DNA of 64,000 bases, from the NCBI GenBank assembly GCA_965261085.1, contig OZ253442.1, forward strand, positions 3,232,001-3,296,000, given 5' to 3'. The position numbers and the translations under genes were made by a program. Shown in pieces: positions 24,929 through 60,797 of the stretch. Position 1 is the stretch's first letter. Each line of letters opens with the position of its first letter. The stretch is from a bacterium. GTDB lineage: Bacteria > UBA8248. The notes under the pieces were generated by a model, which worked only from the letters and a program-made list of their open reading frames with translations, was not told the DNA's origin and made no database searches.

Positions 24929-25410
24929 TCTGAACGACCCTCCGTGCCTGTAAAAAAGAACCTGCCTTTTCCGGTGAACGTATTTGCGCACCCGGCGGCG
25001 GGGCGCCGGGTCGCCGTCTGTCCGTTTCCCTGGGCCGTGGCCTCCTGCGGCCGCCTCGAACCACGCGCGCCGCCGATAGTTGCGATTTAGTAACTGATAA
25101 TTGTTCCAACCGGGGCAATGGGCGCCCCGGCTCAACTCGTTTCTCCTCGCCGGGGGATCCGGAAAATCCCCCAAACACTCACACTCACCGAAAACTCCCC
25201 GTGAACCGCCCAAGGGTTGCTCTACGGAGCGCTGTAAATTATAAGACCCATTTATAGCATAAATTGTGTGAACTTATAGTGAGCATTTGCGCCATTTTAG
25301 TGTTTTTATCGTGTTATTTTGGATAAATTCCGCTGTGGGGCGGCAACTGCGCCGTGTACAAGGGGTTCCAAAACGGTTCGCCGAGGGTGGGACGCAGGGA
25401 CGCCGTCCGC
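24725..25410 (-). repeat. ~685-bp direct repeat copy 1 (promoter cassette + leader + RBS + signal peptide); copy 2 at 26175-26855
   Basis: Near-identical sequence from the AQAQT codons to GGGACGCCGTCCGC in both copies. Confidence 0.92.
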
Positions 25411-25490
25411 CTCACTCTCCCGGAATATGACCGCGTCGGCGGCGAACAGGGCTACGCCGGAACCGGAAAGACCGCGATGCTGAACCGCGC
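25110..25490 (-). promoter_or_regulatory. Conserved expression cassette copy A
   Basis: TATAAT (minus) 25238-25243; half-sites CAC-gataa-aaa-CAC-18bp-CAC-tataa-gtt-CAC in 25267-25316; leader hairpins; relaxase-relic tail. Confidence 0.75.
25354..25490 (+). pseudogene. Fossil fragment of a MOBF (TrwC/TraI-like) relaxase-helicase
   Basis: GRRDAVRLTLPEYDRVGGEQGYAGTGKTAMLNRA matches the helicase motif-I context GQ..AV..IL...DR..GVQGYAGTGKTTML. Confidence 0.7.
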
Positions 25491-26375
25491 CCTTCGTCTT
25501 GCCGTCAGCGTCCGTGATGCCGGTGGTGGCCGCCGTCAGGGTCCGGCCCACCTGCGCCGCGCCGGAGATCGCCGGCTTGCCCGCCGCCTGGGTGTTGGTG
25601 GTGGTCCCGTCAGCAACAACCGTGAATATCCCGGACAAGCCGTAGTATGGCTTAAGATTACCTGAGGGGGCGCCGTTTTGACTGAGTTCAAAACCCGGGT
25701 TTGCTGGAAATCCCTGGTAGACCTGGCCCGTTGCGCCGAGATGAAAAATCCCGGAAATCTCCCCGCTTGGATTACAGCCTTGAAACGTCGAAACGTCCGG
25801 CTAGCATTACCAATGGGCGTGGTCCCGTCCGGGAATTTGGGCGCATTGGAATCCCAGCCCCCGTCGTACAGATCCGCATAGTTGGCCACCTTGTTCCCGT
25901 TGAGCCAGTAGATCGGGGCACTCGTGTCGCTGCCGGCCGTGCTGGTGTTCACGATGGCGCTGGTGCTCGTAGTACACCCGAGGACCTTGAAAATCGAGGA
26001 GTGGCTTTGAATGTCCGTATGGCCGTTGGCCGATACGTCGGTCTGGAGAAACGTGTTGTAGGTCGCGATGTCCGTGGCTGTTGCGTTCCTTGTTCCGGAC
26101 GTGACGACCAGCAGGCGAAACGAGTCACCTACCCCCAGGCCGCTTGGCACCAGGCTCCAGTTCGCCGTCACCGTCGTCTGCGCCTGGGCCTGAGGGGGCA
26201 GGGCCAGGAGCGCGGCGAAGGCCACGAGGAGCACGGCAGCGGCGCGCGCCGCGAGTAAGCGCACGCGCAAACGCCCCGGCCGACCCGGTTCGGCTATCAT
26301 CAGAGCGGCATCCTTTAGAGCGTCATCGTTTCTTCCGGCTTCAACACCCGTCTCGAATTTTCCGCGTTTTTGCAT
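25491..26375 (-). pseudogene. Truncated and frameshifted paralog of the autotransporter (different first passenger domain)
   Basis: Same N-terminus/signal peptide as the 24928 gene; an 8-bp tandem duplication GAAACGTC (25782-25797) shifts the frame; removing it gives a continuous frame to ...YYGLSGIFTV...GKPAISGAAQVG...DADG, then the gene is cut off at cassette A. Confidence 0.85.
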
Positions 26376-26556
26376 TCTGAACGACCCTCCGCGCCTGTAA
26401 AAAAGAACCTGCCTTTTCCGGTAAACGTATTTGCGCACCCGGCGGTGGGTCGCCGGGTCGCCGTCTGTCCGTTTCCCTGGGCCGATGCCTCCTGCGGCCG
26501 CCTCGAACCACGCGCGCCGCCGATAATTGCGACTTAGCAACTGATAATTGTTCCAA

Positions 26557-26855
26557 CCGGGGCAATGAGCGCCCCGGCTCAACTCGTTTCTCCTCGCCGG
26601 GGGATCCGGAAAATCCCCCAAACACTCACACTTACCGAAAACTCCCCGTGAACCGCCCCGTAGTTGCTCTACGGGCGCTGTAAATTATCAGACGCATTAA
26701 AGCATAAAATATGTGAACTTATCGTGAGTATTTCCGCTAATTGCGTGTTATTATCGTGTTATTTTGGACGAATTCCGCCGTGGGGCCGCAACTGCGCCGT
26801 GTACAAGGCGTTCCGAAACGATCCGACGACGGTGGGACGCAGGGACGCCGTCCGC
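26557..26855 (-). promoter_or_regulatory. Conserved expression cassette copy B
   Basis: GATAAT (minus) 26684-26689; CAC-gataa-taa-CAC-18bp-CAC-gataa-gtt-CAC; same leader hairpins as copy A. Confidence 0.75.
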
Positions 26856-26946: not shown

Positions 26947-27139
26947 CGGCGACAAACCGGGGGATGAGGAATGCGCCTCGCGAGCTTAAGCCAAAGGGGT
27001 TCCGAACGCATCGGCGCCCGGCCTTCCTTGAATCTTCTCCAGAGTCATCCGAATCGACCCCCGGCCGGAGCGATTTTTTGAGACCACCCCTATCGAGGCG
27101 AAGGCGCATTTCCCCGCATTTGCGGTGACGGGACGCGGG

Positions 27140-27270
27140 AGAGCGCGTGTATGATGGCGAAGCGCATCGCCGCGTTCGAGAATAAGGAATTTCTGAAAAA
27201 TACGATAAATTCACGGGGTTTTTCGATAAAAAAATAAAGGTTTAACTTATTGATATATATTGAGTTAAGA
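27140..27270 (-). repeat. Integrase-associated AT-rich end element (inverted copy of 41183-41330)
   Basis: rc TAACTCAATATATATCAATAAGTTAAACCTTTATTTTTTTATCGAAAAACCCCGTGAATTTATCG...TTTTTCAGAAATTCC matches 41183-41277; contains an IHF-consensus site TATCAA-N4-TTA. Confidence 0.8.
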
Positions 27271-27297
27271 GCGAAATCGCCTCAGATCGGGGCGGAA

Positions 27298-28173
27298 TCA
27301 GGCGTTGATGGAACTCAGCAGCGCATGCACCGCCGCGTTCAGGGGAGTGGGAATTCTGCGCCTGGCGCCGATTCGAACGACCGCCCCCGTCATGACGTCC
27401 GCCTCTATCCGGCGCCCGGCGCGCCTGTCGGCGAGCATGGAGGTGGTCGCCTCGGGGTCCGCATCCTTTAGGCGTTCGATGGATCGCTCGGCGACGTCAT
27501 CCGCCAGTTTCGCGCCCTCCGCCCTGCCCACTGCGGCGCATTCACGCACGAGCCCGCGGCAAAGCTCGGCGACATCGGGCTCGCGCAGCACGCCCCTGCC
27601 CTTATTCGTCAGCGCAGTTGCGGGGCCTGCGCCGATGTTGTTACACAATTTGGCCCAGGAGGCGGTCGTGAAATCGGAAGTCGGCTTCACCTGAATGTCC
27701 GTGCCCTCATACAGGGAAGCGAGGAGCCGCGCGCCCCGGCCCTCTTCGGGAACGAGCTGGGCGCCTCCCTGCTGCGCCACATGGCCGGGAGCCAGCCTGT
27801 CCGCCGGACAATTCACCACGACCGGAACGATTTCCGCCCCTTTGGCGTACGGCTCCACCCGCTGTTTGTGCTCCACGCCATTTTGCAAAACGGCGATGAT
27901 CGTACCCTCACCCACGAGAGCATCCAGCCAATGAGCGACATCTTGTATCTGGTGCCCCTTCACCGCCAGGAGAACGCAGTCGACGGGTCTTGCTTCGGAG
28001 GGAGCGGTAACGCATTTCACCTGTGATTCGATAACGGAATCGCGTGTTTCCACCACGAGTTTGTCGATGGGCTTTCGCACACACAGCGTAACATCGTGCC
28101 TGCTCGATCGACATAACCGAACCCCGAACACGCTTCCAATGGCCCCGACTCCCAACACGGCTACCTTGCTCAT
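27298..28173 (-). CDS. panE: 2-dehydropantoate 2-reductase (ketopantoate reductase family)
   Basis: GVGAIG, LAVK, LQNGVEH, WAKLCNN, TSMLAD..AGR.IE, IPTPLN. Confidence 0.85.
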   Translation of the reverse strand: MSKVAVLGVGAIGSVFGVRLCRSSRHDVTLCVRKPIDKLVVETRDSVIESQVKCVTAPSEARPVDCVLLAVKGHQIQDVAHWLDALVGEGTIIAVLQNGVEHKQRVEPYAKGAEIVPVVVNCPADRLAPGHVAQQGGAQLVPEEGRGARLLASLYEGTDIQVKPTSDFTTASWAKLCNNIGAGPATALTNKGRGVLREPDVAELCRGLVRECAAVGRAEGAKLADDVAERSIERLKDADPEATTSMLADRRAGRRIEADVMTGAVVRIGARRRIPTPLNAAVHALLSSINA

Positions 28174-40945: not shown

Positions 40946-41182
40946 GAGTCGCATTCTCCCCATAAAATCAATGCCCCGCCCGTTTCCTGTATCCCGCGAG
41001 GTCAAAACGCTCTTCTATCAAGACAAATCAAAATTTACCATTCTATTTCCTCATCGTCCAATACAAAATACAGTAGCACTCCGCGCGGTCAAAATCGAGT
41101 CCGTACGCCAACAATTCCTCCCCGCGAATCCGCGCATCATCCATCAACGCCTGATTCCGCCCCGACCAGAGGAGAATACACT

Positions 41183-43216: not shown

Positions 43217-43251
43217 CTCATTCGTTATTAACTCTAGAAAGGTAACGGACC

Positions 43252-44030: not shown

Positions 44031-44076
44031 GGTTGCGGACCGGGGTTCCACAGCTTGCAGGTACTGTCAACGACCC

Positions 44077-44621: not shown

Positions 44622-45764
44622 ATGAGTGAACGGGAGGCGTTCGAGCGCATCCTGGCATCGTTGTACGATGCGGCGCTGGACGATACGAACTGGTCGACCG
44701 CCTCCGCGCTGATCGACGATGCCCTCCACACGCACGGCAACAGCCTGGGGATCGTCGACGTACACTCCGGGGAGGACATCCAGATCTACTTTGCAGGGGT
44801 CTTCTTCCACGGGCAACGGCGCCGCGATTTGGAACGCGAGTACTTCGAGGTCTACTACCCCCTGGACGAACGGGTCCCCCGCGTGCGGCATCTCCCCGAC
44901 AGCCAACTGACCCATATTGTCGACCTCTACACCAAAGAGAAGTTGAGAACCTCCGTAGTATACAACGATTATTTGGCCCGCATACATGCCCAGAACAGCA
45001 TCAACGTTCGCCTGGACGGACCCAACGGCTCAAGCATTGCCTGGGTTGTCCACGACCCGGTTGACGGTGACTGCTGGTCGTCCGCCCAACTCGACTCGCT
45101 CCGGCGTCTCCTGCCCCATATCCGCCAATACGTGCGCGTCCGGCAGACGCTGGCCGGCGCGGGTGTTTTGGGCGCGTCCCTCACGGAACTGCTCGACAGC
45201 ACCGGGTCGGGCATCATCCAACTCGACCGTCGCGGGCGGATCGTGGACGTGAACGACCGCGCCCGGGAATTGCTGCGGACCGGAGACGGTCTGTTCGACG
45301 AGGACGGTTTCCTGTTCGCCCGCACGCCGGGGGACAACACGCATCTCCAGGGACTGCTGAAGCGAGCACTGCCGCCGTTCGGGACCCTGGGCGTCGGCGG
45401 CTCTACGATGGTGAGGCGTGAATCGGCCCTGCCGCTGGTGCTGCACGTCAACCCGGTGGACCGGCAGAAGACGGACCTCCGCGTTTGGCCGGTCGCGGCG
45501 CTCGTGCTGGTCGTGGACCCGGCGAGCCGGACCCGTATCGATCCGGCCGTGGCCGGGGCGGCCCTCGGCCTCACGGGGGCGGAAAGCCGGGTGGCGGTGC
45601 TGTTGGCCGAAGGCATGAGCGTCCGTGAGATCGCTGCGGCGATGGGCCCAAAGGAAAGCACGATCCGCTGGCACGTGAAGCGCATGTTCGCCAAGCACGG
45701 CCTCACGCGACAGGCCGATCTGGTGCGTCTTGTGCTGTCGCTGGCCAACGCTATGGAGTCTTGA
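44622..45764 (+). CDS. PAS-domain LuxR-family transcriptional regulator
   Basis: LYDAALD..W N-terminus, LLPHIRQ, PAS-like GIIQLDRRGRIV.VN, HTH GLTGAESRVAVLLAEG.SVREIA...TIRWHVKRMFAK.G.TRQADLV. Confidence 0.88.
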   Translation: MSEREAFERILASLYDAALDDTNWSTASALIDDALHTHGNSLGIVDVHSGEDIQIYFAGVFFHGQRRRDLEREYFEVYYPLDERVPRVRHLPDSQLTHIVDLYTKEKLRTSVVYNDYLARIHAQNSINVRLDGPNGSSIAWVVHDPVDGDCWSSAQLDSLRRLLPHIRQYVRVRQTLAGAGVLGASLTELLDSTGSGIIQLDRRGRIVDVNDRARELLRTGDGLFDEDGFLFARTPGDNTHLQGLLKRALPPFGTLGVGGSTMVRRESALPLVLHVNPVDRQKTDLRVWPVAALVLVVDPASRTRIDPAVAGAALGLTGAESRVAVLLAEGMSVREIAAAMGPKESTIRWHVKRMFAKHGLTRQADLVRLVLSLANAMES

Positions 45765-45901
45765 TACCGAAGGCGGAAGCAGCCCTAGGCCGGCGCTGAC
45801 GTCGTCCACCTTCCCGAAAATTCCCAAGATATGGCGAAAAATTCGCCGGATACCCCCAATGTTGGAGGCGCGAAGAAGCGCACGCTTTTCTTATACTTTA
45901 A
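45755..45901 (+). repeat. ~146-bp direct repeat copy 2; putative LuxR-dependent promoter of the autotransporter
   Basis: Palindrome 45853-45868, TATACT 45892-45897, about 160 bp upstream of the 46061 ATG. Confidence 0.85.
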
Positions 45902-46060: not shown

Positions 46061-49000
46061 ATGCAACCACGAGAAAAGTTCGACACGGGTGTTGACGCCG
46101 GAAGAAACGATGCCGCCCGCACGAACAACGGTTCGACCACCGACTCCGGCATACGGGGACCACAGAAATCAGACAAGGGGGCCTGCGGGCCGCCATCCGC
46201 CTCCTCCCCGAAGGCCGGTCTTTTTGCGCGGGCGCTTGCATGCGCCGTCGCCCTGGCGCTGGCCACCATGCTGGCGTTCGGCGCGGGTGATGCGTCGGCT
46301 GCGGGCGTGTGCAGAAACACGCCCGAAACCGGGGAAAGGGTCGAGTGTAAGAAGGATTCCAGTTCCAGCGACAACATCGAAATCCAACTTGACGGAATCG
46401 ACATCGACACGACGGATGGGGGCGGCCACGGCGTTCATGCCGAGCATCAAGGCGACGGACACATCGATATCGGGATCGACACCGACTTTGCAGAAGGTGA
46501 CCGAGACACCTACAGCACCATCGTCACGACCGCCAGCCGCAACTACGGTATCTACGCCCATCATCTCGGCGACAACTCGGTGGTGACAAGCACGTTTTCT
46601 GCCACCATCGGCACCCAGGGCAATTATGCCCCCGCCATCTATGGCCGGCACGAGGGTAGCGGGCTCCTCAGAATCAGATCTTTGGGGGACGAAATCACTA
46701 CCACAGGCGCTTATTCCCATGGCATCTATGGCCATCATTTCAGCACCGGGGATATCGAGATCGACGTTAGTAGTGACATCGAGATACGAAATACCAAATC
46801 CTACGGCGTCTTTAGTACACATCACGGCACCGGTGATATTCGCATCAATCTCACAGACACCGTCAAAACATCTGCCTATACGTCTTCCGGCGGTATCTAC
46901 GCCGTGCATTGTGGCTTCGACAGCACAGACTCCTCAGGATGTCTTTTACCTGCACTCGACACCCTTAGTAGCGGAGATATCCGCATCAATGTCAATAATT
47001 TCAAATTCCTCCCTTTGAACAGCAGTGCCGCCATTAGCGGCTACAGCATCGAAGCCCTTCATTCGGGTGACGGCGACATCCATATTGATGCTCGAAATGG
47101 AACCTTCACCCTGGTGGGTCGAAGTGGCGATGGCATCACGGGCCGCAGTCGCGGCACCGGCAACATCAACATTTATGCGGAAGAAGTCACAATTCACACG
47201 AATGGCGACAGTTCAGTAGGCATCTTCGCAGTCGCCGAAAGCGCGCTTGGTCCCCAGCAAGTCGAAATCACCACCCAGGAAGTGGATGTAACCACGGAGG
47301 GCCCCAGATCCCACGGAATTTGGGGTTCGAATCAAACCGCGGGTGGTGTTACCTTAGACGTACAGGGTGGAACCTTGACTCTTAATGGCAGGGAATCACA
47401 CGCCGTTTATAGTACCGTTTCTGCTGGGAATATCTCCGACATCGATGTCCAGAACGCCACTATCATCATGGGGCTTGGGAATAATGGCGGCCACGGCGTT
47501 CAAAATGATATGGGCGGCATCGGCGACAGCAATACCGACGTGCGGGATACCACCATCATCACGAAAGACGATGATTCCCGCGGCATCGTGGGCCGGCATA
47601 GGAGCACGGGCGACATCGACATCGAAGTCCGAGGCGGCTCCATCAAGACGAGCGGCGAGTATGCGTATGGCATCTATGGTCTTCATCAAGGCGAAGGCAA
47701 CGTCACGCTCAATATGCAAGACGGCAACGCCGTCACCACGACGGGCGAGAACGGCCACGGCATCGTGGCCTATAATTTCGGAACGATGGACTCCAGGACC
47801 ATGGCGATCACGGTCGGCGGCCGCGTCGACACGAGTGGCGCGGGCGCACAGGGCGTCCGGGTGGGCGTCGTCAATACCGACGGCGCGCCAGAGCGCGTAG
47901 CCGCCCTGGACGACGCGGAGGGCTATCGTAAGCAGACGGTCACGGTGAACGGCTCGGTGATGGGCGAGGCCGTGGGCGTCTTCCTTGCGGGCGGCGGCCG
48001 GGTCGTCATCGGGCCGCAGGGGACAGTCGGCGCAGAATCCGGGATCGCGATTCTCGCGTCGGGAGATACGCCTGTAGAAGGCGGAGATCCAATCAAGCCC
48101 AAGCTGCTCGTCGACATGACGCTCGACGGCCGCCGGGTGCGGGACGTATTCGGGGATGACTGGATCATCAACGACGAAGGCGAGACCACCATCGTGGTCA
48201 ACGAGGTTATGCTGCACGAGGGCGCGAAGGGCGTCGTGCCCGGCGCGGTGGCCCCCAACGGGGCGTGGAACGTCCGGATGAGAGCGGAAGGCGTCAACGT
48301 GGACTACACCATGGACCCGGCGAACTGGGAAATGATCGTGCCCACCGCGGGCGTCGTCGTCGACCGGGATTTCTCGGCGGCGGACTTCACGGAAACCCAG
48401 AAGCCAACTATGCCGCCGCCCATGTGCCCTGAAGGACAAGTCGGGACGCCTCCAGACTGCACCACGCCACCCCCACCCATGTGCCCTGAAGGACAAGTCG
48501 GGACGCCTCCAGACTGCACCACTCCCCCGCCGCCTATGTGTCCGCCGGGACAAGTCGGGACGCCTCCAGACTGCACCACGCCACCCCCACCCATGTGCCC
48601 TGAAGGACAAGTCGGGACGCCTCCAGACTGCACCACTCCCCCGCCGCCTATGTGTCCGCCGGGACAAGTCGGGACGCCTCCAGACTGCACCACTCCCCCG
48701 CCGCATATGTGTCCGCCGGGACAAGTCGGGACGCCTCCAGACTGCACCACTCCCCCGCCGCATATGTGCCCGGAAGGACAAATCGGGACGCCTCCAGACT
48801 GCACCACTCCCCCGCCGCATATGTGTCCCCCGGGACAAGTCGGAACGCCCCCGGACTGCACCACTCCCCCGCCGCCCATGTGTCCGTCCGGGCAGGTCGG
48901 GACGCCCCCGGACTGTTCCGCTCCGCCGCCTGAGATTTTCGAGGAATACGCCCCGCGCGCGGCGGTCTATGAGGCCCTGCCGGGCTTTTTGCTGAAACTG

Positions 49001-49843
49001 AACGGCGGGGGACCGGCCGGGGAGCGGGTGACCTCGCCCGGCTCGCCCGTGTGGGCGCGGCTCTCAGGAAGCCGGGGGTCGCATTCTCCCGATCGCTCCA
49101 CGGTGGGGCAGGATTACGACTTCGAACGCTTCACGGCGGAAGCCGGGATGGACGTGTCGCTCGGCGAGAGCTTTACAGGCTCGATATCGCTGATTCACGT
49201 CCGGGGTTCTGCGGAGGTCTCCTCCCCGTTCGGCGGGGGTGACATCGAGGCGGAGGGACTCGGCGTATCCATTGGGGCTTCCTGGCGGATCGAGGGCGGT
49301 TATTACGCGAACGGGAACCTCTCGCTGACGGACTACGACGTGGACGCCACCTCCGGCGACATCAACGTAGGAACCTTGAAGCGCGGCGCCTTCGCGCGCG
49401 GCACGCTCCTGAACCTCGAGGCGGGCAGGCGCATCAGGATGAGCGAGAAGCTGAACCTCACGCCCCGGGCGTGGATGACGCGCTCGGGGGTTTCTATCGA
49501 TACATTCACAGACTCCGTGGACGCGCGGGTATCCGCCGCCGAGACGGCGCGCTTCACGGGCGGCGTGGGTGCGGTCGCCGAGACTGCGCGGGCCATCGAG
49601 GGCGGCGTGCTCTCCCTGCGGGGTTCCCTGGACCTCGAGCAGAAACTCGACGACGCGGAGACGGCCGTCGACGTGTCGGGAACGAGGCTCGAATCGAAAT
49701 CCCAAAAGACCCGGCTCCTGCTGGGACTGGGCGGCGTCTACCGCAAGGGCCGCTTCTCGGTAAGCGGGGAAGTCTCGATGGGCGGTTTGGGTTCGGACGA
49801 TACGAAGTATGCCGGACAGGTGAGCTTCGGGATGAGGTTCTAG
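46061..49843 (+). CDS. Autotransporter with beta-helix-like passenger and Cys/Pro tandem-repeat linker
   Basis: AGGAGG RBS; extended signal peptide; repeated T.G..s.GI.g.h...GdI.I units; YAPRAAVYEALP linker; barrel ends GMRF. Confidence 0.87.
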   Translation: MQPREKFDTGVDAGRNDAARTNNGSTTDSGIRGPQKSDKGACGPPSASSPKAGLFARALACAVALALATMLAFGAGDASAAGVCRNTPETGERVECKKDSSSSDNIEIQLDGIDIDTTDGGGHGVHAEHQGDGHIDIGIDTDFAEGDRDTYSTIVTTASRNYGIYAHHLGDNSVVTSTFSATIGTQGNYAPAIYGRHEGSGLLRIRSLGDEITTTGAYSHGIYGHHFSTGDIEIDVSSDIEIRNTKSYGVFSTHHGTGDIRINLTDTVKTSAYTSSGGIYAVHCGFDSTDSSGCLLPALDTLSSGDIRINVNNFKFLPLNSSAAISGYSIEALHSGDGDIHIDARNGTFTLVGRSGDGITGRSRGTGNINIYAEEVTIHTNGDSSVGIFAVAESALGPQQVEITTQEVDVTTEGPRSHGIWGSNQTAGGVTLDVQGGTLTLNGRESHAVYSTVSAGNISDIDVQNATIIMGLGNNGGHGVQNDMGGIGDSNTDVRDTTIITKDDDSRGIVGRHRSTGDIDIEVRGGSIKTSGEYAYGIYGLHQGEGNVTLNMQDGNAVTTTGENGHGIVAYNFGTMDSRTMAITVGGRVDTSGAGAQGVRVGVVNTDGAPERVAALDDAEGYRKQTVTVNGSVMGEAVGVFLAGGGRVVIGPQGTVGAESGIAILASGDTPVEGGDPIKPKLLVDMTLDGRRVRDVFGDDWIINDEGETTIVVNEVMLHEGAKGVVPGAVAPNGAWNVRMRAEGVNVDYTMDPANWEMIVPTAGVVVDRDFSAADFTETQKPTMPPPMCPEGQVGTPPDCTTPPPPMCPEGQVGTPPDCTTPPPPMCPPGQVGTPPDCTTPPPPMCPEGQVGTPPDCTTPPPPMCPPGQVGTPPDCTTPPPHMCPPGQVGTPPDCTTPPPHMCPEGQIGTPPDCTTPPPHMCPPGQVGTPPDCTTPPPPMCPSGQVGTPPDCSAPPPEIFEEYAPRAAVYEALPGFLLKLNGGGPAGERVTSPGSPVWARLSGSRGSHSPDRSTVGQDYDFERFTAEAGMDVSLGESFTGSISLIHVRGSAEVSSPFGGGDIEAEGLGVSIGASWRIEGGYYANGNLSLTDYDVDATSGDINVGTLKRGAFARGTLLNLEAGRRIRMSEKLNLTPRAWMTRSGVSIDTFTDSVDARVSAAETARFTGGVGAVAETARAIEGGVLSLRGSLDLEQKLDDAETAVDVSGTRLESKSQKTRLLLGLGGVYRKGRFSVSGEVSMGGLGSDDTKYAGQVSFGMRF
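48407..48919 (+). repeat. 9 x 57-bp coding tandem repeat (TPPPPMCPEGQVGTPPDCT)
   Basis: ATGTG...GGACAAGTCGGGACGCCTCCAGACTGCACC recurs every 57 bp. Confidence 0.95.
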
Positions 49844-52515: not shown

Positions 52516-53388
52516 TCAGATGCCTTCGACCCCGCCGTCGTCCACGGACGTCGTTTCGGAGAAGATGAAATCCGTCTCGTCCAGGTCGTTCACGTCGACG
52601 TTGCTGAGCCTGATCTGACCCCCGCCGTATGCGCTTAAGTCGATGACGGCGTCCGTCCCCTGGGCGGTGATAGCGAGATCCTCGAAACCGGCAATGCCCG
52701 AGATCGCCGTGAGGTCGATCATGTCTTCCCCGTCGGCGAAATCCTTGATCGTGTCCGCGCCGTGGTCGGGGGTGAACACGAAGGTGTCCGCGCCCGCGTC
52801 GCCCGTGAGCGTATCGTCGCCCGCACCGCCCGAGATCGTGTCGTCGCCCGACCAGCCGTAGAGCGTGTCGTCGCCCGCGCCGCCCTCGACGGCATCGTCG
52901 CCCTCGCCGCCAACTATCGTGTCGTCGCCCGACCAGCCGTAGAGCGTGTCGTCGCCCGCGCCGCCCTCGATCGTGTCGTCGCCCGCGCCGCCCTCGACGG
53001 CATCGTCGCCCGCGCCGCCGTAGAGCTTGTCGTCGCCCTCGCCGCCGATTAGCCTGTCGTCACCCTCGCCGCCAACTATCGTGTCGTCACCCTCGCCGCC
53101 GTAGAACGAGTCATTCCCCGCGCCGCCATCGAGCGTGTCGTTGCCCGCGTCGCCGAAGATCAGGTCGTCGCCCTCGCCGCCGTAGAGCGTGTCGTCACCG
53201 GTGCCGCCCTCGATCGTGTCGTCACCCTCGCCGCCCTCGATCGTGTCGTCACCCTCGGCGCCATAGAGCGTGTCGTCACCCGCGCCGCCGTAGAGCGTGT
53301 CGTCGCCCCCGCTACCGTAGAGCGTGTCGTCTCCCTCGCCGCCCGTGAGCGTGTCGTCGCCCCTACCGCCGTAGAATTCGTTTGGCAT
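52516..53388 (-). CDS. RTX calcium-binding repeat protein (probable type I secretion substrate)
   Basis: About 22 GGxGDDxLx nonapeptides, GADTFVF, C-terminal domain ending DDGGVEGI; AGGGG RBS; no signal peptide. Confidence 0.9.
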   Translation of the reverse strand: MPNEFYGGRGDDTLTGGEGDDTLYGSGGDDTLYGGAGDDTLYGAEGDDTIEGGEGDDTIEGGTGDDTLYGGEGDDLIFGDAGNDTLDGGAGNDSFYGGEGDDTIVGGEGDDRLIGGEGDDKLYGGAGDDAVEGGAGDDTIEGGAGDDTLYGWSGDDTIVGGEGDDAVEGGAGDDTLYGWSGDDTISGGAGDDTLTGDAGADTFVFTPDHGADTIKDFADGEDMIDLTAISGIAGFEDLAITAQGTDAVIDLSAYGGGQIRLSNVDVNDLDETDFIFSETTSVDDGGVEGI

Positions 53389-53456: not shown

Positions 53457-55022
53457 TCAGATGCCTTCGACCCCGCCGTCGTCCACCGTCGTTTCCTGGA
53501 AGATGAAATCACTGGCATCGAGATCCGCCATGTCGAAGTTCTCCAGGGTGATCGTTCCGCCGCCGTGGGTGATCACGGCATTGCCGCCATCGGCGGTGAT
53601 GGCCAGATCATCGAAGCCGGAAATGCCCGAGATCGCCGTGAGGTCGATCATGTCTTCCCCGTCGGTGAAATCCTTGATCGTGTCCGCGCCGTGGTCGGGG
53701 GTGAACACGAAGGTGTCCGCGCCCGCGCCGCCAAATAAGGTATCGTCGCCCGCGCCGCCATCGAGCGTGTCGTCGCCCGCCCAGCCGTGGAGCGTGTCGT
53801 CGCCCGCGCGGCCCGTGAGCGTATCGTCGCCCGCGTCGCCGCCATCGCCGCCGCCATAGATGATGTCGTCGCCCAATCTGCCTGTCACCGAATCGTCGCC
53901 CTCGGTGCCTTCATATCTCCCGCCAGTGAAAAACCTGAAATCATCCGCACTCAGTTCCGTAACCTGGACACCCTCCAGCCGGATGGTGCCGCCGCCGAAG
54001 GCGCTCAAGTCGATGACGGCGTCATTTCCATCGGCGGTGATGGGCAGATCATCAATACTCATCACGTTCTTGACATTGGAAAAATCGATTACGTCGCCGC
54101 TGGAGAAGTCCGTGATCGTGTCGTCGCCGTGGCCTTCGAAGGGCACGAACACGTCGCCGGTATCGGCGAACACGAACGTGTCCGCTCCATCTCCGCCCGT
54201 TAGCGTATCGTCGCCCTCTCCGCCCGTTAGCGTATCGTCGCCCTCTCCGCCCGTTAGCGTATCGTCGCCCTCGTCGCCATAGATGGTGTCGTCGCCCGCG
54301 CCGCCATCGAGCGCATCGTCGCCCTCACCGCCTCTTAGAGTGTCGTTGCCCGCGCCGCCGGAGATGGTGTCGTCGCCCGCGATGCCATAGAGCGTATCGT
54401 CGCCCTCGCCGCCATAGAGCGTATCGTCGCCCGCGTCGCCAACCAAGGTGTCGTCGCCCGCGCCGCCATCGATGGTGTCGTCGCCCGCGTTGCCATAGAG
54501 CCTGTCGTTGCCCTCGCCGCCATCGAGTGTATCGTCGCCCTCACCGCCGTAGATCCAGTCGTTGCCCGCGCCGCCATCGATGGTGTCGTCGCCCGCGCCG
54601 CCACTTAGGGTGTCGCCGCCCTCGCCGCCATAGATGGTGTCGTCGCCCGCTTCGCTATAGATGGTGTCGCCGCCCGCGTCGCCGGAGATGGTGTCGTCGC
54701 CCGCGCCGGCGGAGATGGTGTCGCCGCCCTCGCCGCCGGAGATGGTGTCGTCGCCCGCGCCGCCATAGATCATATCGTTGCCCGCGCCGCCATAGAGTGT
54801 ATCGTCGCCCTTGCCGCCACTTAGTTTGTCGCCGTCCGCGTCGCCAGAGAGTGTGTCGTCGCCCGCGCCGCCATAGAGTGTATCGTCGCCCGCGTTGCCT
54901 CTTAGAGTGTCTTTGCCCGCGCCGCCATAGAGTGTATCGTCGCCCTCGCCGCCATAGAGCTTGTCTTTGCCCTTGCCGCCAGAGATACTGTCGTCGCCGT
55001 CGCCGCCGTATTGTGTTGGCAT
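53457..55022 (-). CDS. RTX calcium-binding repeat protein (probable type I secretion substrate)
   Basis: Two blocks of GGxGDD nonapeptides, each followed by a GADTFVF...IDLS.. domain; ends DDGGVEGI; same 5' flank AGGGGAAACGACATGCC as the 53388 gene. Confidence 0.9.
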   Translation of the reverse strand: MPTQYGGDGDDSISGGKGKDKLYGGEGDDTLYGGAGKDTLRGNAGDDTLYGGAGDDTLSGDADGDKLSGGKGDDTLYGGAGNDMIYGGAGDDTISGGEGGDTISAGAGDDTISGDAGGDTIYSEAGDDTIYGGEGGDTLSGGAGDDTIDGGAGNDWIYGGEGDDTLDGGEGNDRLYGNAGDDTIDGGAGDDTLVGDAGDDTLYGGEGDDTLYGIAGDDTISGGAGNDTLRGGEGDDALDGGAGDDTIYGDEGDDTLTGGEGDDTLTGGEGDDTLTGGDGADTFVFADTGDVFVPFEGHGDDTITDFSSGDVIDFSNVKNVMSIDDLPITADGNDAVIDLSAFGGGTIRLEGVQVTELSADDFRFFTGGRYEGTEGDDSVTGRLGDDIIYGGGDGGDAGDDTLTGRAGDDTLHGWAGDDTLDGGAGDDTLFGGAGADTFVFTPDHGADTIKDFTDGEDMIDLTAISGISGFDDLAITADGGNAVITHGGGTITLENFDMADLDASDFIFQETTVDDGGVEGI

Positions 55023-55058: not shown

Positions 55059-55387
55059 GCAACGAAAACTCCCCGTGCACCACCCATAGTTGCTCTACGG
55101 AGCACTGTAAATTATCACACCCATTAAAGCACAAAATGTGTGAACTTAGTGTGAACATTTGCGACAATTACGTGTTTTTATCATGTTATTTTGGATAAAT
55201 CCCCCTGTGGGGCCGCAACCGCGCCGTGGACAGGGCGCTCCGAAACGATCCGCTGACGGTGGAACGCCGTCAGGCTCATTCTCTCGGAATATGACCGCGT
55301 CGGCGCCGAGCCCGATACCCTCGTCTTGCATGGCCACTGTATCGACTTCACCCTGAGTAGCCGCCGAAGGTCAAACGCGACTGAAAA
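55059..55387 (-). promoter_or_regulatory. Conserved expression cassette copy C (distal tail continues at 56910-57012 beyond the IS)
   Basis: GATAAT (minus) 55111-55116; perfect direct repeat TGTGAAC-ttag-TGTGAAC 55139-55156; colinear with 60383-60797 once the IS is removed. Confidence 0.78.
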
Positions 55388-56909
55388 GGGGTTGTTGAAA
55401 AACCCCTGACTCTATGCTTGGATGTATGGATATTACGCGCCCGAGAAGGGAATATCCGCGATGTTGGGACGCAAGAACCGCGCCCAGATGGATTTGTTCA
55501 TCACCGGTTCGCTGGAGAGGTTGATTCCCGAGGATCACATATTGGCCCGCGTGAACCGCGTTCTGGACCTGAGTTGGCTGCGCGAGGAAGTGGCGGATTG
55601 TTATTGCGCGGACAACGGCCGTCCTGGGATCGACCCCGAAGTGGCGGTTCGGTTGATGTTGGCGGGCCTTCTGCTGGGGTTCGTGCACGACCGTCGGTTG
55701 ATGCGCGAGGCGCAGGTGAACATCGCGATCCGGTGGTTCATCGGTTACGGGCTGGAGGATCGGCTGCCGGATCATTCGAGCCTGACGCGGATACGGCAGC
55801 GCTGGGGGGAGGCCCGGTTCCGGGAGATATTCCGCCGCACGGTCCGTGCGTGCCTGGATGCGAAGGTGGCCAAGGCCGAAGTCGTGCACGTGGACGCCTC
55901 ATTGATCCGCGCGGACGTGAGTTGGGAGAGTCTGGTGGAGCGTCACGTGGACGAGGTGATAGCGGAGAACCCCGTCGAGGAGGAGGCCGGGAAGAAGGGT
56001 GGAGGAGGCCGCCGTGGCGGGGGTTCCGGGAAGGTGAGCCGGACGGACCCGGACGCGCGGCTGGCGAGAACGGGCGGGGGATTCGAGCCGAGCTACAAGC
56101 AGCACGCTGTGGTGGACGACACGCGCGGGGTGGTGCTCGACGTATCGGTGACGGAGGGTACGGTGAACGAGCGTGAGGTGCTCGAATCGCAGGTGGAAGC
56201 GGTATGCGAGGTATCGGGGCGCGCGCCCGCGATGGTGACGGCGGACTCTGGCTACGCCTACTCGAAGGTCTACGCGGCCCTGGAGCGCCGGGGTGTGGCC
56301 GCGCTCATTCCGGCGAAGAGGGAACCCTCGCAGAGCCGTGTTCCGTTGCGCCTGTTCCGCTACGACGCGCGGCACGACATCGTGAAGTGTCCGCGCGGCA
56401 AGATACTGAGCCCCCGTCGGCCCGCAAAGGGGGGGCGTTATTATCGTTCGAAGACCCGTGATTGCGCGGGCTGCGCGCTTCGCGAGGATTGCCTGCCGAA
56501 GGCGTGGTCGAGCAAGGTGGTGTTGGTTCCGCATGCGTATCCGGCGCTGTTGCGCGCGCGCCGGCGCCATGCGCGATGGAGGGAGGAGGAGCGGCGGATG
56601 TACCGGCGTCATATGTGGCGCTCGGAGGGCTACCACGGCGAGGCGAAGACCTGGCACGGGCTTGCGCGCGCGGTGCGGCGCGGTCTTGAGAACATGAAGA
56701 TACAGTCCTACCTGACGGCGGCGGCGATCAACCTCAAGCGGCTCTCCGCCGCACTTGCTGCAAGGTTATTCGCCCTCTGGAGGGCCTGGTCGGCCCGGGA
56801 AGAGCCTCTGTGCGTCCATCGCGGCCTCGCAAGCTGCGCGGGCTTCCTGTCCGCCGCCGCGTGACCCTCCATACCGCCCGCTCCCGAAACCGGGTTATTC
56901 AACAACCCC
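55388..56909 (+). mobile_element. Complete IS1182-family insertion sequence
   Basis: 18-bp TIRs GGGGTTGTTGAAAAACCC (55388-55405) and GGGTTATTCAACAACCCC (56892-56909), 17/18 match; 5-bp target duplication GAAAA on both sides. Confidence 0.92.
55461..56864 (+). CDS. IS1182-family DDE transposase
   Basis: LIPEDH, GRPGIDP, PDHSSLTRIRQRWG, HVDASLI, SRTDPDA, TADSGY, CPRG, C..C.LR..C, E..HGEAKTWHGL. Confidence 0.92.
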   Translation: MLGRKNRAQMDLFITGSLERLIPEDHILARVNRVLDLSWLREEVADCYCADNGRPGIDPEVAVRLMLAGLLLGFVHDRRLMREAQVNIAIRWFIGYGLEDRLPDHSSLTRIRQRWGEARFREIFRRTVRACLDAKVAKAEVVHVDASLIRADVSWESLVERHVDEVIAENPVEEEAGKKGGGGRRGGGSGKVSRTDPDARLARTGGGFEPSYKQHAVVDDTRGVVLDVSVTEGTVNEREVLESQVEAVCEVSGRAPAMVTADSGYAYSKVYAALERRGVAALIPAKREPSQSRVPLRLFRYDARHDIVKCPRGKILSPRRPAKGGRYYRSKTRDCAGCALREDCLPKAWSSKVVLVPHAYPALLRARRRHARWREEERRMYRRHMWRSEGYHGEAKTWHGLARAVRRGLENMKIQSYLTAAAINLKRLSAALAARLFALWRAWSAREEPLCVHRGLASCAGFLSAAA

Positions 56910-57028: not shown

Positions 57029-60000
57029 TCACATGGAATCTTCCACCACCGACAGCGTGTAGGTGCCTGTATCGTATCCCCAGGCGCCGGCCGCCACATA
57101 GTAGGCGCCGGCTTCCTCCGCCGTGAACGTCACCCGGGCGTTGTAGCCCGCGCCGCCGTCGTCGTCCGTCGTGCCGGGGATGAAGTTTCCGTCCGCGTCG
57201 TGGAGCCCGTACAGATACGGGTCACTCAAGGTGCCGCTCCCGGTCGGCGAGCCCTTGAGGTCGATCCGGTAGGTCGCGCCCGCCTCGAGTTCCACCGCGA
57301 ACCAGTCGCAGTCGAACGAGATCTCGATATCGCTCGTCACCGAGCCGCCCACCTCCACCGCGCCGCTCGTCCCGGTACCCGCCGCCAAATCGTCCGGGAC
57401 CTCAGTCACCGACAGCGTGTAGGTGCCTTTACTGTCATATTCACCGCCGCCGGTGTATACATAGCTGTTGCCGGCCACCAAATAGTAGGTGCCGGCATCC
57501 GTCGCCGTGAACGTCACCCGGGCGTTGTAGCCCGCGCCGCCGTCGTCGTCCCACGTGTAGAGGATACGGACGCCGTCCGCGTCGCGGACCGAGCCCAGAT
57601 GCGGGTTCCTCATGGTGCCGCCCCCGGTCCACGAGCCTTCCAGGTCGATCCGGTAGGTACTGCCCGCCTCGAGCTCGACGGCGAACCAGTCGTGGTCGTT
57701 AAATACATGGATCTTGCCCGTCGCCGAGCCGCCCACCGCAACCCGGCCGGTCGTGGAGGTGTCTTCCGGAAGGTCCTGGCCGTCCGGTTCGGACACACTC
57801 TGTTGCGTCTCCGTAACCTCCTGCGCTTCGGCCACGTCGGTGACGTTGACGGTGACGGTCACCTCGCTGTGCAGGCTGCCGTCACTCGCCCGCACCGTCA
57901 GTTCGTACCGGGTCGTCCCCGACTCGTAGTCCTCGCCCGCGCCCTGGTACGACAGGGCGCCCGTCCCCGGGTCGATGGCGAACAGGCCACCGGAGTCGCC
58001 CGCCTCGATGCTGTAGGTAATCGTCGAGTTTTCCGGGTCCGTCGCCGATACCGCGCCCAACGCTACACTGGCCGCGCCGCCGTCGGCGTTCTCCGCCAGT
58101 GAGAACGCATAGCTCCCCTCCGCGAACGCCGGCGCTTCGGCCACGTCGGTGACGTTGACGGTGACGGTCACCTCGCTGTGCAGGCTGCCGTCACTCGCCC
58201 GCACCGTCAGTTCGTAGCTGGTCGTCCCCGACTCGTAGTCCTCGCCCGCGCCCTGGTACGACAGGGCGCCCGTCCCTGAGTCGATCTCGAACAGGCCACC
58301 GGAGTCGCCCGCCTCGATGCTGTAGGTAATCGTCGAGTTTTCCGGATCCGTCGCAGAGACCGCGCCCAACGCTACACTGCTCGCGCCGCCGTCGGCGTTC
58401 TCCGCCAAGTCGAACGCATAGCTCGTCTCCGCGAACGCCGGCGCTTCGGCCACGTCGGTGACGTTGACGGCCACGGTCACGTCGCTGTGCAGGCTGCCGT
58501 CGCCGGCGCGCACCGTCAGCTCGTAGCTGGTCGTCCCCGACTCGTAGTCCTCACCCACGCCGATGTAGAACACCTCGCCGCTCGTCGCGTCGATCTCGAA
58601 CAGGCCACCGGAGTCGCCCGCCTCGATGCTGTAGCTCACCGCCGCATCTTCGGGGTCCGTCGCCGATACCGCGCCCAGAGACACCCCGTTCGCGCCCCCG
58701 TCCGCGTTCTCCGCCAGTGAGAACGCATAGCTCGTCTGCCCGAACGCCGGAGGACCGTTCACGGTTTTCTGCTGTGCGGTCTGAGGCGAGACGTCCCTGA
58801 CCTCAACCTCGTAGGCGCCGAGTCCGGAGTAGGCGCCGGCGATGATGTAATGTGTGCCGCTCTCGGTCGGGGTGAAGTTCAACCGGCTGTTGTAGCCTTC
58901 GCCTCCATCGTCGTTGGACACGCCCGCAATTCGGCTGCCGTCAGGGCCCTTGATGCCGCGCAGATACGGATCGTTCAGTGTGCCGTCGCCCGTCGGGCTG
59001 CCCCTGAGATCGATGATGTAGGTCCGCCCCGCAACCAGCTCCACCGCAAACCCATCCCGGTCGCCCGTGCTCCCGATCTTGCCGGTAGCGGTGCCGCCGA
59101 CGGCAACCCGGCCAATCGTCGATGTATTCGTGGGAAGGTCCTCGCCGTACGGCTCGGACACGCTCTGCAAGTTTTCCGGGTCGGCCGGCGCGACAATCGT
59201 TTGCTCCGGCACGTCCGTAATGGCGACGCTCACCGCGGCGTCGGCGGTCAGAGCGCCGTCGCTCGCCCGGATCGTCAGGTCGAACTGCGCCGCGCCGGCC
59301 TCGTAGTCCTCGCCCGCCCCGACGTAGAACAGCTCGCCGCTCGCCGCGTCGATCTCGAACGACCCTGACTCGTTGCCGCCCTCGATGCTGTATGCGACCG
59401 TGTCATTGTCCGGGTCCGTGGCCGTAACCGCGCCCAGAGATACCCGGTCCGTGCCCCCGTCCGCGTTCTCCGCGAGTGAGAACGCGTAGCTCGCCTCCGC
59501 GAACTCCGGCGCCTCATCCGTCCCCTCCTGCTGCTGCTGCTCCAAGGCGGCCACCACGTCGGGATTGGCCCCACTCACCCCATAACGCAGTTTGAATTCG
59601 TTGGCGCCTTCTTCCTGCGCTTCCACCCGCACGAAATACGTCCCGGCCAGGAGCGTCTGCGAAATCCACTCGCTCGCCGTCCCCTCCTCCGTGCCGCTGT
59701 AGAGGACGTTGCCTTCGGCGTCCTCCAGAAACAGGTCGGCATTCGCATCCTGTTGGCGCAAACCCAGTCCAACCCTCCTGGCCTCCGAAAGCGTGAAGCG
59801 CCAGTAGTCCACCGAGTCGGAGGAGCCGTCGAGTGATGCTGCCGGAAACTGCAGCCCGGCGAGAGCCGTGATATCGCCGAGATCGGTCGCGCCGCCGCGC
59901 TCGGCGTCCGTATCCACCCATTCCGTCACGCGCACGGTGTACTCGCCCGTCTGATTCGAATGGCCGCGAGCTTCGATATAGTAGGCGCCGGTGGTGGCGG

Positions 60001-60280
60001 CGGTGAAGGTCAACCGGGCGTCCCTGCCGGCGCCGCCATCGTTGTCCCGGGCGCCCGCAATCCGGTTGCCGCCGGCGTCGTAGAGGCCTCGCAGTACCGG
60101 GTCCTGCAGGGCGCCACCGCCGCTGTCGGCTCCCTCCAGGCCGATGACGTAGGTATGGCCGGCGACCAGGTCGACCGCGAACCAGTCGAAGTCATTCGAG
60201 GTCTCGATCTCGCCCGCCGCCGAGCCCCCCACCGCAACCGCGCCGGTAGTCTGCGTATCGGATGTATAGTCGTCAGGCAT
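57029..60280 (-). CDS. Secreted PPC-domain/cadherin-repeat protein
   Basis: Repeated G...VGGS.TG.I....D.DWFAVEL.AG..Y.I.L.G domains; four cadherin repeats (AP.F....YAF.LAENADGG...V.ATDP...DYE); no signal peptide. Confidence 0.88.
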   Translation of the reverse strand: MPDDYTSDTQTTGAVAVGGSAAGEIETSNDFDWFAVDLVAGHTYVIGLEGADSGGGALQDPVLRGLYDAGGNRIAGARDNDGGAGRDARLTFTAATTGAYYIEARGHSNQTGEYTVRVTEWVDTDAERGGATDLGDITALAGLQFPAASLDGSSDSVDYWRFTLSEARRVGLGLRQQDANADLFLEDAEGNVLYSGTEEGTASEWISQTLLAGTYFVRVEAQEEGANEFKLRYGVSGANPDVVAALEQQQQEGTDEAPEFAEASYAFSLAENADGGTDRVSLGAVTATDPDNDTVAYSIEGGNESGSFEIDAASGELFYVGAGEDYEAGAAQFDLTIRASDGALTADAAVSVAITDVPEQTIVAPADPENLQSVSEPYGEDLPTNTSTIGRVAVGGTATGKIGSTGDRDGFAVELVAGRTYIIDLRGSPTGDGTLNDPYLRGIKGPDGSRIAGVSNDDGGEGYNSRLNFTPTESGTHYIIAGAYSGLGAYEVEVRDVSPQTAQQKTVNGPPAFGQTSYAFSLAENADGGANGVSLGAVSATDPEDAAVSYSIEAGDSGGLFEIDATSGEVFYIGVGEDYESGTTSYELTVRAGDGSLHSDVTVAVNVTDVAEAPAFAETSYAFDLAENADGGASSVALGAVSATDPENSTITYSIEAGDSGGLFEIDSGTGALSYQGAGEDYESGTTSYELTVRASDGSLHSEVTVTVNVTDVAEAPAFAEGSYAFSLAENADGGAASVALGAVSATDPENSTITYSIEAGDSGGLFAIDPGTGALSYQGAGEDYESGTTRYELTVRASDGSLHSEVTVTVNVTDVAEAQEVTETQQSVSEPDGQDLPEDTSTTGRVAVGGSATGKIHVFNDHDWFAVELEAGSTYRIDLEGSWTGGGTMRNPHLGSVRDADGVRILYTWDDDGGAGYNARVTFTATDAGTYYLVAGNSYVYTGGGEYDSKGTYTLSVTEVPDDLAAGTGTSGAVEVGGSVTSDIEISFDCDWFAVELEAGATYRIDLKGSPTGSGTLSDPYLYGLHDADGNFIPGTTDDDGGAGYNARVTFTAEEAGAYYVAAGAWGYDTGTYTLSVVEDSM

Positions 60281-60305
60281 GGTCTGTCCCCTTTCTCAAG
60301 TGAAT

Positions 60306-60797
60306 CCGGGGCAATGGGCGCCCCGGCTCAACTCGTTTCTCCTCGTCGAGGGATCCGGAAGATCCCCCCCAAACACTCACACGCAACGAAAACTCCCCGA
60401 GTTTCGCCCCAGGGTTGCTCTACGGAGCGCTGTAAATTATCAGACCCATTTAAGCACAAAATGTGTGAACTTAGTGTGAGTGTTTGCGACAATTACGTGT
60501 TGTTATCGTGTTATTTTGTATGAATCCCCCTGTGGGGTCGCAACCGCGCCGTGGACAGGGCGTTCCGAAACGATCCGCCGACAGTGGGACAGTGGGACGC
60601 CGTCAGGCTCATTCTCTCAGAATATGACCGCATCGGCGGCGAGCCCGATACCCTCGTCTTGCATGGCCACTGTATCGACTTCACCCTGAGTAGCCGCCGA
60701 AGGCGGCATATCGAAGGGCGCTCCCTTTCGATGCGCCCCGGCGCTCCCTCGATACGGCGCGCGAGCGCGCCTACTCGGGATGAGGGAGGAGTGTCGT
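60306..60797 (-). promoter_or_regulatory. Conserved expression cassette copy D (leader hairpins + core + relaxase-relic tail)
   Basis: GATAAT (minus) 60436-60441; CAC-gataa-caa-CAC-18bp-CAC-actaa-gtt-CAC; + strand reads VDRAFRNDPPTVGQWDAVRLILSEYDRIGG. Confidence 0.78.

Follow-up and report, generated by a model that had tools for sequence, protein, structure and literature searches.

The window analysed here is a stretch of 64,000 nucleotides (nt) from a bacterium of the UBA8248 lineage (assembly GCA_965261085.1, contig OZ253442.1, positions 3,232,001 to 3,296,000; C1:3232001-3296000 in the notation used below), and the genome to which it belongs, G000, is a single contig of 4.27 Mb. Five copies of a non-coding cassette lie in this window, each in front of a gene, or the remnant of a gene, for an exported repeat protein, and one of them stands directly downstream of a gene for a hybrid sensor kinase with a winged-helix output domain. 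Throughout the genome the cassette, which is about 170-340 bases in length, precedes 11 genes for secreted or surface repeat proteins. An initial annotation of the window, made from the letters alone, had suggested that one regulatory module was copied onto unrelated genes of this kind.

The cassette and its copies

Repeat families D6, D10, D12, D14 and D15 and the inverted pair I10 were recovered in the window by the repeat search, and the alignment of the five copies in gene orientation (MAFFT) revealed that they share a core of about 170 nt with long invariant runs. The cores are found at 25186-25356 (w25k, minus strand, nhmmer E 2.9e-53), 26634-26801 (w26k, minus strand, E 7.6e-54, repeat families D10/D15), 43060-43226 (w43k, plus strand, E 2.3e-38, the most diverged copy), 55061-55228 (w55k, minus strand, E 1.7e-54) and 60384-60553 (w60k, minus strand, E 1.8e-54). 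The start codons downstream of them lie at 24928, 26375, 43252, 55022 and 60280, respectively. When the cassette of w60k was compared with the other copies by BLAST, the identity was 85-96% over 250-330 nt, and 73-76% for two diverged copies.

A profile of the five window copies was run against the whole genome with nhmmer and gave 11 matches with E-values from 2e-55 to 2e-37, while the next match had an E-value of 4.9. The six copies outside the window are located at C1:1066676(+), 1071393(+), 1621482(+), 1873048(+), 3306294(-) and 3325337(-). The five copies proposed by the initial annotation were thus borne out at their positions by the repeat search, MAFFT and nhmmer, and their genome-wide number is higher. 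The claim that every copy lies directly 5' of, and points into, an exported repeat-protein gene or its remnant holds for all 11 copies: the orientation relative to the downstream gene is the same in each of them, and neither random orientation nor random placement relative to genes was seen. Likewise, none of the 11 precedes a housekeeping gene. The supposed absence of copies before transporter genes has to be qualified, since the copy at C1:1621482 (g1621k) precedes a remnant of a PPC gene that is followed by a split gene for a type I ATP-binding cassette (ABC) exporter.

Genes downstream of the cassettes

The 11 downstream genes fall into three groups, namely seven PPC/cadherin genes, two RTX genes and two SRCR/cadherin-like genes. 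In the window the first group is represented by the PPC/cadherin gene after w60k (57029-60280, minus strand, 1083 amino acids, four Cadherin and four PPC domains in Pfam) and by the PPC-domain gene after w43k (43252-44121, plus strand, 289 amino acids, Pfam PPC), whose product is 56% identical to the N-terminal module of the former. The proteins of this group, that of w60k included, begin with MPDDY and have no N-terminal signal peptide. One gene of the group is the remnant of about 39 codons at g1621k, which stands before the exporter gene that is split in two frames, and another gene of the group is itself split in two frames. Genes for type I ABC and membrane-fusion proteins are located downstream of two PPC loci.

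The copy w55k is followed by two genes with RTX nonapeptide repeats (53457-55022, 521 amino acids, and 52516-53388, 290 amino acids, both on the minus strand), which match Pfam HemolysinCabind with E-values of 1.6e-95 and 4e-106. The two copies of the RTX group belong to a 97% identical segmental duplication that includes an insertion sequence (IS). The gene after w25k (19856-24928, minus strand) encodes a large exported protein with Cadherin-like, fn3, SRCR and Calx-beta domains in Pfam. It has a long N-terminal signal region in common with the autotransporter encoded at 46061-49843 (repeats I4/I13), and its C-terminus is beta-barrel-like with W as the final residue; the matches to OMP_b-brl and Autotransporter are sub-threshold, and the label of an autotransporter given to this protein by the initial annotation draws solely on them. 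The gene after w26k (25536-26375, minus strand) is a truncated tandem paralogue of the 5' part of the SRCR gene (D7, 94% identity to 24786-25085), for which no Pfam family was found. Therefore, the statement that the cassettes serve unrelated protein families stands, and the statement that each of them serves a different gene does not, because the gene after w26k is a truncated tandem duplicate of that after w25k and the genes after w43k and w60k are paralogues.

Modular anatomy of the cassette

The anatomy of the cassette was deduced from an alignment of the 11 copies with their flanks and from separate BLAST searches with each module. In gene orientation the order is a small repeat resembling repetitive extragenic palindromes (REP-like), a relaxase gene fragment, the core, an optional hairpin module and a gene-specific ribosome-binding region. 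The core is AT-rich, measures about 160-170 nt and is found in all copies. The 3' module, of about 85 nt with two hairpins, is present in eight of the 11 copies and once by itself at C1:1876657. In w25k the cassette of core and 3' module spans 25110-25356 (3' module 25110-25184) and in w26k it spans 26557-26801 (3' module 26557-26631), both on the minus strand. The leader module of w60k (60281-60390, minus strand) comprises hairpins at 60351-60368 and 60306-60326 and the ribosome-binding region, and extends to the ATG at 60280. The 3' module is missing from w55k, in which the ATG is 38 nt away, and from w43k, which has no relaxase fragment either. An open reading frame (ORF) with a tyrosinase central domain (42159-43139) terminates inside the 5' edge of the w43k cassette.

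The relaxase fragment consists of about 100-200 nt from the internal P-loop region of a conjugative relaxase/helicase gene and is placed on the strand opposite to the cassette. In w60k this pseudogene fragment (60541-60645, plus strand, AGTGKT P-loop region) abuts the core, and in w25k it adjoins the cassette at about 25357-25495 (plus strand). Its translation matches the full-length relaxase/helicase genes at C1:221k, 1158k, 2492k and 3719k. These four genes suggest that the genome holds several integrated conjugative elements. From the whole cassette only the relaxase-derived first 97 nt were recovered in 40 relatives by BLAST. The relaxase fragment is a passenger that marks the common descent of most copies.

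The REP-like repeat, on the other side of this fragment, is a separate repeat family and lies outside the cassette proper. An uninterrupted copy, to which no strand was assigned, is located beside w60k at 60640-60800 and has 22 BLAST matches in the genome. The repeat is the target of an IS of 1522 bp with DUF772 and DDE transposase domains in Pfam (480 amino acids), which is present in about 25 genomic copies of 99-100% identity and interrupts the REP-like repeat at three cassette loci, w55k, g1071k and g1621k. The IS upstream of w55k lies at 55388-56909 (plus strand) and splits the repeat there. The leader of g1621k contains a tandem duplication of about 17 nt (L002:2100-2162, which is G000:C1:1621600-1621661). 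The ranges proposed for the copies by the initial annotation were correct as far as the core is concerned; what they include outside the core belongs to the other modules, that is, the relaxase fragment and the REP-like repeat on the 5' side and the hairpin module on the 3' side.

One would argue that a multi-copy intergenic sequence, confined at such a copy number to one genome that is rich in IS and REP-like repeats, and with an IS beside three of its 11 copies, is a miniature mobile element (MITE-like or IS-derived) which inserts before genes and carries an outward promoter. However, the 5' breakpoints differ from copy to copy in the 11-copy alignment, and its inspection revealed neither a terminal inverted repeat nor a target duplication that would be convincing: in inverted orientation only about five of nine bases agree between the two ends of the minimal unit. 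Additionally, the neighbouring IS sits in the separate REP-like repeat and has its approximately 25 copies elsewhere without the cassette, all cassettes have the same orientation to their genes, and seven of them share the coding start too. We therefore consider a mobile element of this kind very improbable. Because the 5' ends are ragged and convincing terminal inverted repeats or target duplications were not seen, the cassette is not a discrete transposable unit, and the word "portable", by which the initial annotation had described it, does not apply in that sense.

The promoter-like core

Two pairs of direct repeats with a period of 11 bp, four half-sites in total, are found in the core. 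The first pair, box A, has the consensus of approximately CAYGAWAA-N3-AYAYG, and the second, box B, of approximately TCACRnTAA-N3-CAYA, is always found 32 nt downstream of it. A TG-extended -10 element follows about 11 nt after box B, and no -35 hexamer accompanies it. Box A, box B and the -10 are retained in 11 of 11 copies. In w60k (minus strand) they are located at 60496-60510, 60465-60478 and 60448-60457, with an invariant leader motif at 60414-60425; in w55k (minus strand) at 55171-55185, 55140-55153 and 55123-55132; and in w43k (plus strand) at 43100-43114, 43132-43145 and 43153-43163.

With the -10 taken at face value, box B would cover positions of about -37 to -24 and box A of about -69 to -55. 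A layout of this kind is characteristic of promoters that need a response regulator of the OmpR/PhoB type, and winged-helix response regulators bind tandem direct repeats. The cassette resembles those promoters in its tandem direct repeats with an 11-bp period, in the proximal pair that, if the extended -10 is real, would lie over the -35 position, and in the lack of a -35 hexamer; it differs from them in that its half-sites do not follow the Pho-box consensus. The sites of CRP, CtrA, Fur, sigma-54 and EcfG and the DnaA box were compared with the core by eye only, and none fitted well. Taken together, the sequence makes it quite probable that the cassette is a promoter-bearing control region.

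The distance from the putative -10 to the start codon is about 165-520 nt, and such long leaders raise the question if the leader itself is the functional part, either as a cis-acting RNA (an attenuator, a riboswitch or a hairpin that binds a protein or a small RNA) or as a short RNA that ends at a hairpin and T-run about 60 nt past the -10. The invariant leader motif is located in the loop of a 6-bp hairpin in which 87.7% of the cells pair, and one pair is doubly changed, from U-A to G-U on both sides, in w43k and g1621k. A terminator-like hairpin with a T-run is indeed present in w60k. However, it was found in only one of the four copies scanned, and a general transcription attenuator was dropped as a candidate. 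The pairing of the hairpin was no better than in controls (80 of 500 shuffles were equally high), the fold of the w60k leader was not better than that of shuffles (z -1.23), and this leader is missing from the related elements in other species, described below, in which the boxes and the -10 are present. A leader peptide was rejected too, as the short ORF after the -10 falls out of frame in copies with indels of 1-2 nt upon inspection of the alignment. No Rfam family matched at gathering thresholds anywhere in the window, which agrees with the remark of the initial annotation that the sequence was not recognised as a described element. Thus we give little credence to the leader as the functional core.

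Related elements in other species

From the 11 cores a covariance model based on sequence alone (R1) was made and run against 42 family genomes. Outside G000 it matched in two places only, in two congeners, with E-values of 1.3e-3 and 4.7e-3. In each case the match lies in the correct orientation just ahead of a lipoprotein gene with a lipobox, and the two genes are orthologues. A third orthologue, in G019, has the same boxes in its promoter. The lipoprotein matched no Pfam or NCBIfam family; the G000 homologue is a remnant that has suffered an internal deletion, and the sequence upstream of it differs. The boxes were then seen by motif search beside orthologues of the hybrid regulator gene, in the divergent intergenic regions of G013 and, with two sites, of G021. 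A gap-free alignment from box A through box B to the TG-extended -10 was obtained for ten sequences, of which G000 contributes four and the relatives six.

The model built from this ten-sequence alignment (R2) was searched in 23 genomes of the genus, where it recovered the 11 G000 copies (67.2 bits for w60k and 49.1 bits for w43k) and all training sites. Strong sites on which it had not been trained (E 2e-16 to 4e-12) were found at G013:C1:218188, G013:C2:31415, G013:C2:483370, G022:C441:3669 and G022:C219:375. The site at G013:C2:31415 is a duplicate of that at C1:218188, and directly next to each of them lies a truncated copy of the regulator gene. The model also gave weaker sites, one of them beside the regulator orthologue of G017. 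Altogether the element occurs in six of the 23 genomes of the genus and in none of the 28 other genomes of the class (51 class genomes), and in related species the number of strong copies (E < 1e-10) ranges from one to four per genome. The downstream ORFs of the relatives encode proteins with a signal peptide or a lipobox wherever the sequence permits reading.

The offset of 32 nt between box A and box B is the same in each of the 21 elements aligned, of which 11 belong to G000 and 10 to relatives. Columns that are conserved in the relatives have the same majority base in the G000 copies in 29 of 43 cases, compared to 19 of 44 for the other columns (Fisher p 0.03), and the column entropies correlate with rho 0.36. 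The protein sequence of the regulator differs by more than 30% between the species, and the conservation of the boxes among them argues for selection on the boxes. The regulatory role proposed in the initial annotation gains support from the relatives, as five other species have the same box architecture in front of genes for signal-peptide proteins and lipoproteins. The core belongs to a putative promoter family at the level of the genus, one that appears older than the G000 copies.

Beyond these genomes the core could not be traced. In pattern scans of public collections, which may exclude the records of the window's own genome, a pattern of 20 specified bases had no matches in genome contigs. 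A looser pattern gave 17 matches in unrelated AT-rich taxa, with nhmmer E-values of at least 0.12 among the matches listed, and five metagenome contigs, which match only the pattern of about 30 nt itself, were treated as chance. G004, the only relative to have PPC-repeat orthologues, differs in the region upstream of them, and nhmmer with the --max option detected no match there.

The candidate regulator

The gene directly upstream of w60k, in tandem with it (61379-63712, minus strand), encodes a protein of 777 amino acids in which GAF, PAS, HisKA, HATPase_c, Response_reg and Trans_reg_C domains are all found by Pfam above cut-off. Its similarity to PhoR-, PhoB- and MtrA-like families of NCBIfam is below the cut-offs. 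Of 22 congeners, 13 have a full-length relative of this hybrid sensor kinase-receiver-winged-helix protein. The four closest orthologues, with an identity of 67-69%, belong to G017, G013, G022 and G021, and in four of four the element is located 44, 45, 119 or 126 nt from the start of the regulator gene, in divergent arrangement; the element of G017, at 119 nt, is weak (E 0.028).

The protein shares the winged-helix domain family with the regulators of PhoB/OmpR-type promoters and differs from them by the fusion of kinase, receiver and DNA-binding parts, with GAF and PAS domains, in one chain. A similar fusion is known from the hybrid two-component systems (HTCS) of Bacteroides, whose output is an AraC-type domain. 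Here the sensor part consists of GAF and PAS domains and the output is Trans_reg_C. In HTCS the sensor kinase is a membrane one, within a transmembrane polypeptide (PMC11253607), and the likeness is that kinase, receiver and DNA-binding output form a single polypeptide, which in HTCS controls adjacent genes with surface or secreted functions. The neighbouring hybrid regulator is a candidate: that it controls the cassette is, judging by the conserved adjacency of gene and element, a serious possibility at somewhat less than even odds.

Just past the end of the window (G000:C1:3295950-3296130), upstream of the hybrid regulator gene, is a fragment that resembles the C-terminal winged-helix part of a further regulator of this type, beside a decayed look-alike of the element. 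In two congeners, at G002:C1:3575098-3578673 and G013:C2:1456800-1460686 a paralogue of the hybrid regulator is divergent from a paralogue of the lipoprotein family, and the intergenic regions at these two loci contain no strong match to the element.

Spread and exchange of the copies

The seven PPC paralogues have in common not only the cassette but also the first 120 codons or so, which are 93-97% identical. The junctions of the cassette with RTX, SRCR and PPC genes lie at differing places, and therefore at least three independent fusions to unrelated genes took place. Because most copies spread together with their own gene (the PPC paralogues, the segmental duplication of RTX genes and the tandem duplication of SRCR genes), there were about three or four independent fusions, not the five placements that the initial annotation implied. 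The left half of the g1873k core is 100% identical to that of g3325k and its right half 87%, whereas the right half is closest to w60k (94%). The informative sites are mosaic and, therefore, the copies recombine.

These observations admit the explanation that the cassette is a passive scar of duplication, that is, an upstream flank that was carried along with duplicated genes and recombined by chance, without a shared regulatory function today. Seven of the 11 copies do precede paralogues with nearly identical starts, the RTX pair and the SRCR pair do arise from segmental and tandem duplication, the relaxase fragment, which is certainly functionless, is conserved together with the core, and several of the downstream genes are truncated or split. 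Contrastingly, the core is common to three unrelated gene families with sharp junctions, and five other species have the box architecture with its spacing, both in front of different exported-protein genes and next to the gene for the regulator. Moreover, in the diverged copy w43k the core shows roughly the same level of similarity as the coding start, and the similarity drops to background immediately 5' of the core. We regard such a scar as an unlikely explanation.

The mosaic patterns, being exchanges of segments among the copies, could also point to a handle for recombination, a shared 5' block which provides homology for shuffling or converting exoprotein genes in antigenic or adhesin variation. 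The downstream genes encode modular repeat proteins (59 matches to the PPC module), and in metagenome contigs the cassette region varies in length and at several letters; these contigs come from mixed samples, in which strains and within-cell variants are inseparable. In the sap genes of Campylobacter fetus and the vsp/vlp genes of Mycoplasma, families of surface or type I-secreted proteins share a nearly identical upstream region and coding start and recombine, and they rely on one active promoter or on phase-variable tracts together with a dedicated inversion or recombination machinery. The cassette differs from them, as each copy has its own complete promoter-like core and non-paralogous genes are served too. 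There is no single expression site with silent copies, all 11 copies keeping the boxes and the -10, no inverted repeats were found to flank a core, and no invertase or recombinase gene was seen beside the copies in the ORFs examined. Exchange between repeats is, besides, expected as a by-product of homology. A handle for surface variation thus seems quite unlikely as the primary role, yet this reading and that of a leader RNA could be added layers rather than alternatives.

Re-use of promoters before unrelated genes is itself no novelty. Sequences of this type were reportedly described as putative mobile promoters by Matus-Garcia, Nijveen and van Passel in 2012. They are defined by at least 80% identity over at least 50 nt upstream of non-paralogous genes in one genome (PMC3575422); no known mobile element is named there behind their spread, the mechanism is given as unknown and the proposed effect is regulatory rewiring. 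The same source reports more than 4000 families, mostly pairs (PMC3575422). By comparison with this account, the cassette has 85-96% identity over 250-330 nt, and its adjacent genes are non-paralogous between the PPC/cadherin, RTX and SRCR groups and paralogous within them (7, 2 and 2). It differs by the 11 members of the family, by its length of up to about 340 nt including a leader, by the one functional class of genes that it serves and by the pseudogene fragment that marks descent. In addition, its ancestry leads back to an older promoter family of low copy number in related species, and it can be linked to a candidate regulator. The present case is an unusually large and functionally coherent family of an already described phenomenon.

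Discussion

We favour the reading that the cassette is an activator-dependent promoter of the neighbouring regulator, followed by a long leader and amplified to 11 copies, and as a whole we hold this statement to be slightly better than evenly supported. According to it, the hybrid regulator would autophosphorylate upon a cytoplasmic signal and occupy the boxes as tandem dimers, which would turn on every cassette-bearing gene at once, so that each core would be active as a promoter with its own transcription start and the downstream genes would be co-expressed. The ancestral element, which in related species would drive lipoprotein and small secreted-protein genes, would have been joined to a relaxase gene fragment in one G000 copy. 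This copy may have spread by gene duplication in the PPC/cadherin group, by segmental and tandem duplication, and also through recombination, which would have fused it at least three times to unrelated genes for exoproteins (RTX, SRCR/cadherin-like and PPC), and gene conversion would keep the copies alike.

Several results weigh against this reading. Four copies were scanned with the sigma-70 consensus, and none of them had a -35/-10 pair in cassette orientation, which fits activator dependence and equally fits the absence of a promoter. None of the RNA structures of the leader gained statistical support. Within G000, five mismatch scans detected the boxes and the leader motif only in the 11 cassettes, with four matches in total outside them, each at the mismatch limit, and the cassette stands at only two of about nine RTX loci and seven of about 12 PPC loci. 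The relaxase passenger is as well conserved as the core, and recent duplication and gene conversion, instead of selection, may account for the high identity of the copies.

The comparison with relatives has its own weak points. The first match between the cassette and the relatives was weak, with about 0.06 matches of that strength expected by chance over the 42 genomes, and the three lipoprotein promoters, being orthologous, make one observation. The conservation test is partly circular, because the alignments A4 and A6 were built after the boxes had been seen and both include G000 copies. The element-bearing genomes are probably one clade and thus the finding in four of four orthologues amounts to conserved synteny and sequence, not to four independent events. 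In G000 the regulator and w60k are in tandem and about 860 nt apart, not divergent, and the site upstream of the regulator gene itself is a look-alike, decayed as judged by eye (1.8 bits, E 1.1), which was not counted.

Other features of the window

An inverted repeat of about 180 nt (84-93%), at 27134-27312 and 41140-41327, brackets a 14-kb stretch with a G+C content of 0.48-0.50 compared to approximately 0.60. The genes in this stretch include panE-like and AllH-like genes and those for an AAA_5 ATPase, a tyrosyl-tRNA synthetase and an aminotransferase, and the stretch is possibly invertible or acquired. Downstream of the w43k gene, direct repeats of 146 nt (92%), at 44068-44213 and 45746-45891, flank a gene for a LuxR-type/PAS regulator (44622-45764). 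The autotransporter gene at 46061-49843 contains eight tandem copies of a 57-nt unit, 84-93% alike, at 48356-48987.

Implications

If the amplified cassettes are under common control, the locus may be a regulon under construction. In such a case the operator-promoter of a soluble GAF-PAS kinase-regulator, present in few copies per sister genome, would have been copied together with its leader before at least three unrelated families of giant adhesin-like exoproteins with two secretion routes and homogenised by gene conversion. One cytoplasmic signal would then switch the surface and exoprotein repertoire, and the cassette would double as a recombination handle by which genes join or leave. We offer this wider picture tentatively, as a plausible one that may well be wrong. 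Without common control, the cassette is a well-described duplication scar.

The entry of genes into a regulon is usually reconstructed as the gain of a binding site by point mutations, and the documented re-use of whole promoters mostly concerns anonymous pairs. This locus unites a family of 11 members with a marker of descent, visible recombination, an ancestral low-copy state and a candidate regulator next door, and the growth of a regulon by promoter duplication thereby becomes directly testable. If the reading is true, the cassette-bearing genes would be the first target set for an uncharacterised class of fused kinase-receiver-winged-helix proteins.

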